Shown here: in pieces, positions 2,991 through 33,134 of the stretch
Position numbering within the stretch: the first letter of the stretch is position 1
How the letters are laid out: every line of letters begins with the position of its first letter
Origin: a phage
Reading direction: 5' to 3' (one strand)
Assembly: GCA_025699765.1 (NCBI GenBank)
Contig: GCA_025699765.1_4134.1
Length of the DNA stretch: 47,489 nt
Position numbers and translations under genes: made by a program
The notes under the pieces: model-generated
Told to the model about the DNA's origin: nothing
Seen by the model: only the letters and a program-made list of their open reading frames with translations
Database searches by the model: none

Positions 2991-3517
2991 TGCGTTTATC
3001 TCCTTCGTTTACGATGAATCCATTATAGCCATTAACAGCGTTTAGTCAATCGAATACATGTAATTGGTGTGTAATCGCGTGTCTATATTGCTCAAGTTAC
3101 AACCAGCATCAGCAGAATCAATGTCTTAAGTAGATTTTTATGCGCTGTCTATTGCGTAACACTTGTAACCGCTTTTTCTTAGAAATACAGAGATACCTAC
3201 AAATAGAATCCACATTGATTAAATTTTGAACATACATGATAGAAACTTGACGAATCAATCAAATCACCTGTTACACGATAGACAACTGTTACACAACAAT
3301 AATTATATATATAAAGCTAAAATTAAATATTATATATCTATATATATTATATAGAGTTTTTATCATATCTACCTGCGGTCGGATAGGGTCGATTTTGTAA
3401 CACCCCTTCCAGTGACAAAAATATACACCTGTTACACGAAAAATTTTGTAATCCAGCTATTGCAATAAAAGTAAATGCGACATACAATGCAATCACACTA
3501 ACGACGAGGACATACAA
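2991..3517. promoter_or_regulatory. AT-rich divergent control region with short direct and inverted repeats
   Basis: 527 bp non-coding stretch between divergent genes. CTGTTACAC occurs three times (about 3270, 3286, 3430), TGTCTAT twice, and there is a (TA)n-rich core at 3300-3360 containing tatatatattatataga, also found at about 32735. Confidence 0.45.
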
Positions 3518-28154: not shown

Positions 28155-28727
28155 CTATTTATTGATGAACGTGGCGGCTATGTGCTGAGCGGTAATTTCT
28201 GGATGACCTTCGACAGAAAAGAAGTCACACTCCTGATAACCGTTGACACCGATCATATCGTCAAGATAGATATAGTCGCGGCTGTCGTTGTCAAAGTTGC
28301 AACCGTTGCGATGGATTCGACACAGCTTGACCTGGATGTCACCTTCAATCATCTGCAAGATCTCGTCTTTGAATCCACCGTCAGTAAATACCGAAAGTGA
28401 ATGCGACTCTTTCACCTTGCTTTCCGCTCGCATACCGAAGAAGCGATTTCCGAACTGCGGCTTGATGACCTCCTCGCTAATCCAGATCATAAACTGGCGC
28501 GGGCTTTTACCGTTCAGGATTGATGCTGGCTCTTCTTTATATCGACGGTCCTCATACAAGAACATGAAATACTCGTAGTTAGCTTCACCCAGGATTGCCC
28601 GGGCAATCTCAAACATTGGCGCTTTGAAGCTGCGTAGCGCTACATGATCGTAAGTGTCAGCCAGGATGCATCCGATAGTGTCCTTTCCTGCGCCAGGCGC
28701 GCCGTTTAAAATGATAGCTGTTTTCAT
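28155..28727 (-). CDS. Deoxynucleoside monophosphate kinase-like P-loop protein (T4 gp1-like)
   Basis: Walker A GAPGAGKDT and an NGKSP motif, both resembling T4 gp1 dNMP kinase (recalled from memory). Confidence 0.6.
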   Translation of the reverse strand: MKTAIILNGAPGAGKDTIGCILADTYDHVALRSFKAPMFEIARAILGEANYEYFMFLYEDRRYKEEPASILNGKSPRQFMIWISEEVIKPQFGNRFFGMRAESKVKESHSLSVFTDGGFKDEILQMIEGDIQVKLCRIHRNGCNFDNDSRDYIYLDDMIGVNGYQECDFFSVEGHPEITAQHIAATFINK

Positions 28728-28835
28728 GTTAGCATCTCCCTAAAAATAATTTTGCCATATTGATGATAGTGTGATTGATGATTAACAGGATGATAACCGT
28801 CAATACCGGATGTGCTGAAATAAATTCGTACAGGT

Positions 28836-29369
28836 TCATTCATCTACCCCGTGAGATTTTAAATGACTGTGAACGTTATCGCCATAGTCAACTACAGCGT
28901 AAGTGGTTATCCCAAGCGATCTGAATTTTTTTATTATATTCACTGAGTCATCCCAAGCCGCAAGAATGTTTTCAATGCCGATCGCGCGAACCGCCTCCTC
29001 TTTCATCACCGTATCTTTCCGGTTATCGGTGCGCGGACGCATAATCAGGTAATCATATCGCGCACCGTGATGCTTAAGCCATAACTCAGATGCGTAACGC
29101 ACCTCATCACTTCGCCCGGTTAAAATTATTACATGATATCCAGCGGCAAACATGGAGTTCATCACATCGATCGTGCTTTGGATAGGGTTGTCAAATATTG
29201 CAGCGCGGTTAAACTCGGACCAGCTTTCGGTTAAGTGCAAATCCTTTGTAGGTAGCAGGTGAAGTCGACCAGATCCATCGCTAAGTGTTCCGTCAAAGTC
29301 AAAGATTGCTACGCGGCGCGGGCCGAGAAACAGGTTGATTGTCTGGCCCCAAATTGTGATTTTATCCAT
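28836..29369 (-). CDS. HAD-family phosphatase resembling the 3'-phosphatase domain of T4 polynucleotide kinase
   Basis: HAD motif I AIFDFDGTL; further matches to the T4 Pnk phosphatase domain (ILTGRSDE vs VVSGRE; DNRKDTVMKEE vs DTRKDDVVKEE), recalled from memory. Confidence 0.65.
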   Translation of the reverse strand: MDKITIWGQTINLFLGPRRVAIFDFDGTLSDGSGRLHLLPTKDLHLTESWSEFNRAAIFDNPIQSTIDVMNSMFAAGYHVIILTGRSDEVRYASELWLKHHGARYDYLIMRPRTDNRKDTVMKEEAVRAIGIENILAAWDDSVNIIKKFRSLGITTYAVVDYGDNVHSHLKSHGVDE

Positions 29370-29409
29370 GATTTATTCCTCTGATTGGTACATCATTTTT
29401 AACTTGGGG

Positions 29410-29535
29410 TTGCGAGGCTACGGTCTACGTTTGCCCCTTCCTTCCTAATGGGTTTTCCCAAGTCAATTTGCTTCGAGGTTTGCGCGGCTCCGGTATACGT
29501 TTGCCGCTTCCTTCTTTTGGGTTTGCCACGAAGCG
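29410..29535. repeat. Tandem imperfect direct repeat (2 x ~60 bp) in the leader of the phosphatase/kinase operon
   Basis: ttgcgaggctacggtctacgtttgccccttccttcc... and ttgcgcggctccggtatacgtttgccgcttccttct... are about 85% identical and adjacent. Confidence 0.5.
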
Positions 29536-29537
29536 TT

Positions 29538-29594
29538 TCGATGGAGTAACTATATCAAGATGCCACGATCCGGTTTTAACAAAAAGTGCTATTC
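29538..29594. repeat. 57-bp exact repeat, copy 1, promoter-like element
   Basis: tcgatggagtaactatatcaagatgccacgatccggttttaacaaaaagtgctattc; the second exact copy is at 31549-31605. Contains TAACA-N5-TGCTA and ACTATA. Confidence 0.7.
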
Positions 29595-29794
29595 GTTTTA
29601 ATAGTGATGCAAAAATAATTTTTTAAGCACGTCACCACGCGCGCTGAATCGACTTGTGGGAGCCTTAAAATCTCGTGGACCAATTGCACTGCCGACACCT
29701 CAGATTTGTAGTAGTGGGCGATTCTGGAGGTATTTGGGCGCATTCCTTCCACTGCGTCGCGTGCTGCATCTTCTGCTGTCATGATAGTAGCCAT
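29576..29794 (-). CDS. Hypothetical ORF, 72 aa (weak)
   Basis: Track ORF whose 3' end overlaps the repeat element; coding status uncertain. Confidence 0.25.
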   Translation of the reverse strand: MATIMTAEDAARDAVEGMRPNTSRIAHYYKSEVSAVQLVHEILRLPQVDSARVVTCLKNYFCITIKTNSTFC

Positions 29795-30576: not shown

Positions 30577-30864
30577 TCATGGTCTAACCTTCCTGTAAGG
30601 TTTGATTGATAACATCACGTACTGCGTGAAGTCGCATTCTTGCTCGTCATACCCGCGATTGATGTATGGCGTCACATCAGTAACATCAGATACCCTGGCA
30701 TGCACTTCCCACCCGGTAAACTCATCCCGATCGAACTCGCATAGCTCCAGGATATCGCCAGGCTGGAAGTTGCGGTCATTAATGCGGAACTCTGCCGTTT
30801 TTGTTCCGTTCATTACTCCGATGAAATGTACAGGAGCGATTTTTAACTTATGAGTTTTTCTCAT
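30577..30864 (-). CDS. DUF3850 / ASCH-like (PUA-fold) domain protein
   Basis: HKLKIAPVHFIGVMNGTKTAEFRINDRNFQPGDILEL matches the DUF3850 pattern H-x-LKI-x-P-x-YF...K-x-FE-x-R-x-NDR-x-FQ-x-GD. Confidence 0.55.
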   Translation of the reverse strand: MRKTHKLKIAPVHFIGVMNGTKTAEFRINDRNFQPGDILELCEFDRDEFTGWEVHARVSDVTDVTPYINRGYDEQECDFTQYVMLSIKPYRKVRP

Positions 30865-30971
30865 AGCTGATTCCTCTGATTGGTTGCTTTGCTTCAATAA
30901 GGCCACTATATCAAATGGCCTTGCGGAATGTTTAGCAATTTGTGCTTAGTAATTTTATGGCTTTATATTAA

Positions 30972-32448: not shown

Positions 32449-33134
32449 AATATAACCTCTTTGTCTATTCGTGTGTAAATGGCGTCATAACGTGTCAACA
32501 ATTGCCATTGTGACGGCGCAATACAGATATGTCAACGCCTGCGAGCCAATTTTAAGCCGTGTAACATTTGTCTAGCTGTCTAGAGTCACTATAGAAATAT
32601 ATAGCTCCCAAAAAAAGTACTGTATATATAAACATGCAGATAGAAATATGCCAACAGTACGCTAGACAATGTAAGACAACTATACACAACTATTACAATA
32701 TAATTATCTATATATATAAATAAAAAAAACACTATATATATTATATAGATACATATATCTATATGTATATTTAGAGGCGTCACAGTGTGTAATTTTGTCA
32801 CAATGGCGATTCTAGACAAATATTACAGTCGTGACAAGTTAAAGTGTAATCGATAGCACTTTTTGCTAAAAATGGGGATTACTACCAGGCGAACCGGGTA
32901 ACACTAGATCCTCCCTCTCACAATCATTGCATTCTCAGCAACAAATCAACCAACTGTTGCACACCATGCAATAATCACGTTTCATCATTCGAGATCAATC
33001 GGGATCGCAATTATTCCAGATATTCCAGCATTGATGGAATAATGAGCAATTATTGGAATAGCATTTTTTGCTAACGACTTAGCTATGTTGGCAGGGTATG
33101 ATTCATCACATCAACCAGCCAGGAGAATAACAAG
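32449..33134. promoter_or_regulatory. AT-rich divergent control region with nested inverted repeats and two TAGCA-N5-TGCTA sites
   Basis: 686 bp non-coding. Inverted pair gccattgtgac (about 32507) / gtcacaatggc (about 32798); TGTCTAG twice (about 32568) and CTAGACA (about 32660, 32812); (TA)n-rich core 32690-32780; palindromes at about 32862 and 33053. Confidence 0.5.

Follow-up and report, generated by a model that had tools for sequence, protein, structure and literature searches.

The leader of the operon that begins with a HAD-type phosphatase gene raises the question of what an imperfect tandem repeat is doing between a phage promoter and a start codon. The first-pass annotation had offered a structured regulatory RNA leader, repeated protein-binding sites and a small non-coding RNA as possible answers. 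The window, by which we mean the whole analysed stretch of 47,489 nucleotides, comes from a T1-like phage (Tunavirus, Drexlerviridae), and the 1.8 kb around the repeat is 89-93% identical to many Tunavirus genomes, e.g. ULIM2, pSf-2 and SH6. The minus strand carries the genes of this region and is the transcript strand of the repeat.

A tandem repeat is indeed present on the minus strand. Its period, first given as about 60 bp, is 70 bp: in an ungapped self-comparison an offset of 70 gave 45/71 matches, in a sharp peak, and an offset of 60 gave 16/71. The most similar part is a direct repeat of 38 nt (29407-29444 and 29477-29514, 87% identity, 70 bp spacing), and a second short repeat lies in register with it. 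The identity that had been reported was about 85%; whole 70-nt units, aligned with gaps, reach 74%. Exactly two occurrences of the core pattern GGAAGSGGYAAACGTAKRCCGKA are present in the window, compared to 0.00 expected from 100 shuffles. Tandem Repeats Finder, run with a minimum score of 30, missed the repeat, as a pair of copies with 74% identity scores under its threshold. We also ran over the window a covariance model of the family that is described below, and it found exactly two copies, denoted units A and B. The units reach slightly further than the extent of 29410-29535 originally proposed, from 29534 to 29470 for A and from 29466 to 29399 for B. As units A and B are the only matches of the model, the earlier statement that no comparable repeat precedes other genes in the window stands.

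29470..29534, minus strand: unit A, three-way-junction RNA motif (covariance-model match 29469-29535, 56.2 bits, E = 4e-15)
29399..29466, minus strand: unit B, three-way-junction RNA motif (covariance-model match 29398-29467, 60.1 bits, E = 2e-16)
29489..29502, minus strand: L3 loop of unit A (AAACGUAUACCGGA); the CG/CG pair inside the loop is invariant
29419..29432, minus strand: L3 loop of unit B (AAACGUAGACCGUA), conserved across 15 units

Each unit folds as a three-way junction consisting of a closing helix P1, a P2 hairpin, and a P3 of 5 bp capped by a 14-nt loop. This loop, L3, is near-invariant (AAACGUAGRCCGGA), and the junction strands are A-rich. In unit A the helices are GCUUCGUGG/CCUCGAAGC for P1, CC/GG for P2 and GCGGC/GCCGC for P3; in unit B they are UUGACUUGGG/CCCAAGUUAA, CC/GG and GGGGC/GCCUC, respectively. 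The P1 sequence is wholly different between the two units with pairing kept in both, and where P3 of unit A has a C-G pair, unit B has G-U. Minimum-free-energy folding of the whole window leader puts each unit into the same junction (z = -2.1), and so does the folding of each window unit taken alone. When the comparison is widened to the 15 units that we collected from phage genomes, single-sequence folding gives the same junction in 14 of them.

Across these 15 units, 10 of the 14 positions of L3 are invariant and 3 more are at least 90% conserved. In a register-fixed alignment, 99.2% of the 251 pair cells are standard pairs, 9 cells being G-U, and 18 of the 22 pairs have changed on both sides. 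As a control, the pairing partners were slid by 1-3 columns, which lowered pairing to 30-48%, and 0 of 500 shuffles reached the observed values. The 99.2% and 18-of-22 values belong to an alignment fitted by hand and are to be read together with three checks, namely RNAalifold, the single-unit folds given above, and an alignment made by the covariance model. RNAalifold, applied to an unsupervised MAFFT alignment, recovered P3 with 4 covarying pairs. Genomic matches aligned by the covariance model showed 90% pairing and 19 of 22 covarying pairs, the non-pairing cells being confined to outer P1 columns of units with a short P1. The variants of P3 (CGGC/GCCG, CGGU/ACCG, GGGC/GCCU, CGGC/GUCG, UUGC/GCAA, UGAU/AUCA and CGUU/AACG) occur with a constant flanking G-C pair and a constant loop. 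P2 ranges from the 2-bp CC/GG closure up to hairpins of 4-6 bp with unrelated sequences, P1 ranges from 2 to 10 bp, and the units are 57-68 nt long across the family (65 and 68 nt in the window).

We consider it very probable that the element is a conserved structured RNA. RNA is favoured over duplex DNA because the G-U pairs correspond to A-C mismatches on the opposite strand, and because the motif is co-oriented with the genes in 8/8 contexts. The proposal of a structured regulatory RNA leader is thus strongly supported in its structural part, both by the junction fold and by the compensation seen within the window pair and across 15 units, a support that does not extend to the word regulatory. 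Repeated protein-binding sites in duplex DNA are disfavoured, since it is base pairing and not sequence that is conserved and since G-U pairs are present. The third suggestion, a small non-coding RNA, may still apply, although no terminator follows the units.

The surroundings of the repeat on the transcript strand, together with the further copies of the promoter-associated box, are as follows.

29549..29592, minus strand: promoter-like cassette (box, 18-nt spacer, extended -10), with putative promoter function
29591-29576, minus strand: imperfect, near-palindromic box TAGCACTTTTTGTTAA, part of the promoter-like cassette
29557-29549, minus strand: extended -10 TGATATAGT, following the box after an 18-nt spacer
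29367..29382, minus strand: Shine-Dalgarno AGAGGAA (29382-29376) and ATG (29369-29367) of the phosphatase gene, read from the sequence
28836..29369, minus strand: first cistron, HAD-type polynucleotide kinase/phosphatase, phosphatase domain (PF25109 HAD_PNKP, 59.2 bits; phrog_415)
14840, 18605, 32854, 33059, 34222, 34741, 45351, plus strand: box copies by pattern match
28157, 29591, 31602, 41900, 44900, 46441, minus strand: box copies by pattern match

The location given by the first-pass annotation, between a duplicated promoter cassette (29592-29549) and the phosphatase start codon (29369-29367), was correct. Its leader length of about 170 nt also agrees with our estimate of about 173 nt, counted from a transcription start predicted near 29542 from the position of the -10 element. 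The near-palindromic box pattern TAGCAYNNNTNGYTAA occurs 13 times in the window compared to 0.05 expected; an extended -10 stands about 18 nt after the box in the copies that we read, and the spacing between box and -10 is constant at other copies. Box and -10 together resemble a promoter cassette under regulation, in which an operator-like dyad takes the place of the -35 element. The same cassettes are annotated as 'terminator' in SA32RD and as 'repeat_region' in Citrobacter phage Stevie. A 57-nt stretch of the cassette (29594-29538) has an identical copy at 31605-31549. That copy precedes an ordinary leader of about 30 nt and then a gene, and no RNA motif is found after the cassette at that site. 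Two (TA)n or AT-rich microsatellite-like runs were also observed in the window (32733-32770 and 3322-3353), the former in the divergent region that separates the leftward early genes from the rightward cassettes (32854 and 33059).

Downstream, the phosphatase gene is followed by a 39-aa ORF, then a 190-aa P-loop ORF and then the cassette at 28157. The assignment of a HAD phosphatase as first gene is confirmed by Pfam (PF25109 HAD_PNKP at 59.2 bits). The label dNMP kinase for the 190-aa P-loop ORF, however, finds no confirmation there, with nothing above cutoff. In the region 28155-29369 (minus strand), the 'polynucleotide kinase' consists of the HAD_PNKP phosphatase domain only (177 aa), and the P-loop ORF is separate from it, two genes downstream. 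Judging from this arrangement, the two ORFs might be a split kinase-phosphatase. In T1 an HNH endonuclease gene (ST63) lies between the two genes, a place where the window has just the 39-aa ORF. The phosphatase gene is context and not a motif-specific partner. No terminator-like site of the Rho-independent kind was predicted on the minus strand of the window from 29399 to 28155.

The association of the motif with the phosphatase gene is not kept among close relatives. In SA32RD, ULIM2 and T1 the pnk gene has a short leader that lacks the motif; the covariance model found no motif in 20 kb of T1 early regions, nor in the pnk regions of SA32RD and ULIM2. The same 191-nt module is present in Shfl1 with 93% identity, before a T1p75-like gene, and in ULIM2 with 97% identity, at a site that lies upstream of the pnk gene of this phage by about 3.7 kb. 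At the site that matches the module of Shfl1, just downstream of the T1p77 homologue, the window has an identical cassette without the motif. The boundaries of the module are the reused cassette on one side and a reused ribosome-binding-site stretch, CCAAUCAGAGGAAU, on the other, which fits movement by recombination between such linkers. The latter stretch, located at the Shine-Dalgarno and start of the phosphatase gene, is likely the right-hand recombination junction, because it is common to the motif-less pnk leader of SA32RD and to the Shfl1 module. As read from these comparisons, promoter cassette, RNA domain or domains, and ribosome-binding site are one portable module, which stands before different genes in different phages and is missing from most close relatives. 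Conservation in related genomes, which the first-pass annotation had named as a point against which its proposal could be held, is accordingly divided: the closest relatives have no repeat at pnk, and the same structure is found elsewhere in related and unrelated phages.

We then searched by BLAST with the region and with the relatives so found. This brought the collection to 15 units in 8 sequence contexts, covering four Drexlerviridae genera, the unclassified phages OzMSK and Msk, a Hafnia phage of the Guernseyvirinae and a Klebsiella jumbo phage.

Tunavirus (Shfl1, ULIM2, ECO104 4-5-2): tandem units
Tlsvirus (FSL SP-126): tandem units
Webervirus (F20, Solomon, VAC2): single unit
Nouzillyvirus (TH27): tandem units
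Unclassified phages OzMSK and Msk: tandem units
Guernseyvirinae (Hafnia phage TS33): single unit
Klebsiella jumbo phages K64-1 and RCIP0023: tandem units

Phage genomes bearing the motif number about 13 among 50,697 records, and such counts are a lower bound, as BLAST and fixed patterns miss divergent members. In IMG/VR, four progressively looser patterns returned true instances only in the isolates SP-126, F20 and Shfl1; the remaining pattern matches there either had no flanking structure or scored at most 16 bits. A scan of species genomes gave one chance match, upstream of an hpf-like gene, and a metagenome scan gave one real match, on a K64-1-like contig, together with five chance matches. 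BLAST found no motif match in 5,426 E. coli genomes and two chance ParA matches only in plasmids. A 21-nt match in the jumbo phage PBECO4 was rejected, being merely promoter-like and located in a 67-nt intergenic gap. The literature that we covered, which did not include the supplement of a catalogue of phage structured RNAs (PMC10690425), holds no description of the motif or of its loop sequence.

The position of the motif is the same throughout. There are one or two copies per leader, always on the gene strand, and the first P1 nucleotide lies 8-16 nt after the -10 in 8/8 contexts, i.e. at an estimated +2 to +10 of the transcript. In the window the RNA domain begins about 8 nt past the predicted start site of a strong extended -10 promoter. 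The -10 elements themselves vary (TGATATAGT, TGGCATAAT, TGGCATACT, TATAGT and TATAAT), as do the promoter types, which are extended -10 in Drexlerviridae, TTGCAA...TATAGT in TS33, and a perfect TTGACA-17-TATAAT in K64-1. The first downstream genes of the 8 contexts belong to 7 different PHROG families, only one of which has a named function. A common downstream gene was considered and rejected: F20 and TH27 share phrog_4344, but Shfl1p05 is unrelated to it.

Several of these loci have features of their own. The covariance model found one motif copy in the whole genome of TS33, heading an 8-kb leftward replication operon. Right after this unit (about 1440-1490 of the extracted locus, minus strand) there is a 7-bp hairpin, UAGCAGG...CCUGCUA, followed by CUUUU, which from its sequence could be a weak terminator just downstream of the motif; a second hairpin stands between it and the first gene of the operon. 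What comes after the tandem units of OzMSK and Msk is another promoter cassette, near-identical to the first, and not a ribosome-binding site (about 1400-1700 of the OzMSK locus, minus strand). The units of these two phages may form a separate transcript, or a very long leader that is read through a promoter. 'Hypothetical proteins' are annotated over the RNA motif in Shfl1 (Shfl1p06, locus 1485-1715, opposite strand), VAC2 (QZE50433, 1452-1610) and K64-1 (gp429, 1416-1571), and these are probably spurious ORF calls.

The reading of the domain's role that we tentatively prefer, and to which we give a chance somewhat short of even, is a cis-acting leader domain that would bind a host factor and raise the output of the downstream gene. 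The conserved loop and junction would form a recognition surface for a component common to Enterobacterales hosts. A specific partner is suggested because the helices vary freely while loop and junction are invariant, and a host component is suggested because no phage partner is evident in a comparison of the window with TS33 and because the hosts are Enterobacterales only. The window and TS33 have in common a tail protein, HNH endonucleases and a protein that is ASCH-like. This last one was the sole shared candidate RNA binder and is not supported as a phage-encoded partner: it is also present in the motif-less SA32RD and is for this reason not motif-specific. The corresponding ORF of the window (30577-30906, minus strand, ASCH/DUF3850-like) has 40% identity to a protein of the motif-headed operon of TS33 and is unchanged in SA32RD. 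Action in cis, on any transcript that the domain heads and with an increase in downstream gene output, is suggested because the 5'-end position is obligatory, the motif is fused in sense to the mRNA and there is no terminator. Two copies would simply increase occupancy. We also counted in favour of this reading the portability of the module, its independence of the gene that follows, and the long TS33 operon, which a single copy heads and in which a hairpin resembling a weak terminator comes next.

This cis-acting domain could work in two ways. In the first, the domain would bind the elongating RNA polymerase and confer a resistance to pausing or termination like that of the put RNAs of phage HK022. 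We slightly prefer this version, although we regard it as a modest possibility, and it is weakened because no terminator-like site is predicted in the window operon before the cassette at 28157. In the second, the domain with its bound factor would be a folded obstacle at the 5' end that blocks mRNA decay or helps ribosome loading. We find this version rather doubtful; it is weakened because a simple obstacle needs no invariant loop, and the predicted single-stranded 5' tails of 2-10 nt, longer than in classical 5' stabilisers, count against an obstacle to decay. Two observations count against the preferred reading more generally. The same genes are expressed in relatives that lack the motif, and the family is small (about 13 genomes of 50,697 records).

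The OzMSK and Msk loci, in which a second cassette follows the units, suit a self-contained RNA better than a leader, and they bear on an explanation that we consider unlikely but serious. In this explanation the motif is a trans-acting decoy or sponge, an abundant early RNA that, either in the leader or processed at A/U-rich linkers, titrates a host protein, RNA or signalling molecule (e.g. a defence component), its fusion to the mRNA being incidental. The downstream gene of OzMSK and Msk is independent of the unit pair, with its own promoter cassette between, and across the family the identity of the downstream gene is unlinked to the motif. However, in every context the motif is in sense fusion with an mRNA, right at the 5' end of the message, and no terminator follows the units in any context, so that no discrete RNA is defined. 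Tandem copies, invariant loop and junction combined with variable helices, and a patchy, accessory-like distribution among close relatives that extends over unrelated phage families of Enterobacterales would all be expected of a decoy, yet the motif resembles none of the known defence systems and host RNA families. Also counted in favour of a decoy was the core of L3, CGUAGGCCGGA: the final 11 nt of the E. coli REP consensus are its exact reverse complement. This is the commonest form of the core (9/15 units), from which the window loops differ at 2 positions each, and we confirmed the REP consensus in 5,426/5,426 E. coli genomes, at 40 or more places in each. The match is imperfect in the window units (2 mismatches each), in Shfl1, in TS33 and in unit B of K64-1, and the complementarity of CGUAGGCCGGA to REP may be a coincidence.

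That the units are riboswitch-like aptamers, one alone or two in tandem, which tune early genes in response to a metabolite or a signalling nucleotide, is improbable in our view. A three-way junction in a 5' UTR, with conserved junction and loop nucleotides, variable helices and the possibility of tandem copies like those of glycine aptamers, is what such an element could look like, and we also counted in its favour what we take to be loose sequence echoes of the glycine aptamer (GAAGGAAGCGGCAA). But even with E up to 5-10, the Rfam aptamer classes gave no match to any member. An expression platform is not seen: P1 is not followed by a terminator, and no conserved alternative pairing occludes the ribosome-binding site. 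P1 and the Shine-Dalgarno are anywhere from 9 to more than 150 nt apart, and the downstream genes are mutually unrelated, mostly without an assigned function, and point to no single pathway. Finally, an element acting as DNA or an inert passenger (sites for a protein that binds DNA, a structure of single-stranded DNA with a part in replication or recombination, or a neutral trace left by cassette recombination) is very improbable: although the module is flanked by reused sequences (promoter cassette, CCAATCAGAGGAAT), so that recombination alone could move it, and although G-T wobbles are tolerable in single-stranded DNA too, neutral DNA that is spread over Drexlerviridae, Guernseyvirinae and a jumbo phage would not retain 18-19 compensated pairs and an unchanging loop, duplex binding sites keep sequence and not pairing, and orientation and position just past the -10 are identical in 8/8 contexts.

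The locus carries a covariation-supported three-way-junction RNA, which is borne on a portable promoter-leader module in enterobacterial phages. The covariation is unusually clean for such a small family, and the motif has crossed between unrelated phage families whose sole common point is the host order. To our knowledge, few structured RNAs are known in lytic coliphages, and we know of essentially one kind of protein-independent RNA element at the 5' end of phage early transcripts, the put RNAs of HK022, which suppress pausing and termination in vitro with no help from proteins. It is conceivable, though we think it rather unlikely, that the motif represents a new class of phage RNA making direct, protein-independent contact with a conserved host target, either as a second polymerase-binding family of antiterminators or anti-pausing elements that is structurally unrelated to put, or as an early aptamer or decoy for a defence component or an immune signalling nucleotide. 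The antiterminator or the decoy version of such an RNA would explain the patchy, horizontally spread and gene-independent distribution. At 65 nt the motif is small enough for direct biochemistry, and if its partner proved to be RNA polymerase, a defence component or part of the decay machinery, the motif would offer a new handle on phage early expression and a compact, portable part for synthetic biology. The analysis also points to annotation errors in several deposited genomes, in which hypothetical proteins are placed over the RNA and promoter cassettes are labelled as terminators.

Comparison with known RNAs starts from Rfam. The whole window gave 0 matches to Rfam 15 at gathering thresholds; the region 29300-29700, searched at E up to 10, gave three noise matches, all at or below 29420; and six other motif-bearing loci, searched at E up to 5, gave nothing on the motif. 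The motif is an RNA family that is absent from the Rfam catalogue. Likenesses to the sarcin-ricin loop, to domain IV of 4.5S RNA (GGAAGCAGC), to helix IV of 5S rRNA and to the handle of type I-E CRISPR repeats were dropped because they are not conserved across units, and so was a kink-turn in the P3 internal loop, which in addition has the wrong strand lengths.

Some repeated elements could be set aside. REP elements are imperfect palindromes of about 35 nt preceded by GTAG and present in hundreds of copies in host genomes; just 11 nt (CGTAGGCCGGA) are common to the motif and the REP consensus, and BLAST with the motif has no match in 5,426 E. coli genomes, so the motif is not a REP element. 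Sponge RNAs of the Csr/Rsm type have repeated GGA in hairpin loops. GGA is found as GGAAGG in Tunavirus-type units, and this type of sponge was rejected since the GGA upstream of P3 is missing in unit A of TH27, of Msk and of SP-126, in TS33 and in unit B of K64-1. Type III toxin-antitoxin loci and pseudo-ToxI arrays have direct repeats of structured RNA in tandem behind a promoter, and their phage copies serve as counter-defence. ToxI repeats are 34-45 nt long and nearly identical, and are followed by a terminator and then an endoribonuclease toxin gene. An array of this kind was rejected: the units of our motif are 57-68 nt long, 74% identical in the window and single in F20 and TS33, with no terminator and no toxin gene.

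The ompA 5' stem-loop and the RNase III sites of T7 early mRNA are modular, gene-independent structures at the 5' end or between cistrons. The motif is likewise modular, gene-independent and located at the 5' end of the message. These elements are hairpins of simple or irregular form, and they have no invariant 14-nt loop. In T7 the sites are found all along the genome and relatives conserve them, whereas the motif locus is found once per genome and is patchy, and unlike RNase III substrates the motif has too short a P1 (4-5 bp in TS33 and K64-1). The glycine riboswitch (RF00504) resembles the motif in having junction domains, conserved junction nucleotides, variable helices and two adjacent imperfect copies in a 5' leader. 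It differs in that the motif has no Rfam match and no expression platform, exists also in single copies (F20, TS33), precedes unrelated genes and occurs in lytic phages only.

The remaining comparison is with the put RNAs of HK022, putL and putR, which are cis-acting antiterminators that bind RNA polymerase and consist of two stem-loops arranged in a V shape with a triplex (PMC9378689). The family model (R1), run with filters off over 17 kb of HK022, had no match at putL or putR, its best score being 11 bits on the wrong strand; this null model score, the unrelated sequence of putL and the different architecture rule out homology. The motif has a P1-closed three-way junction in contrast to two stem-loops, its copies are in tandem in one leader in contrast to one per operon, it is optional among close relatives, and no terminator-like site was predicted in its operon in the window. 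What it has in common with put is a folded RNA of about 65-70 nt that is encoded on the transcript strand a short way past an early phage promoter (PMC9378689), with no evident phage protein, more than one copy per genome and enterobacterial hosts, and while put acts independently of the gene that follows, the motif could do the same.
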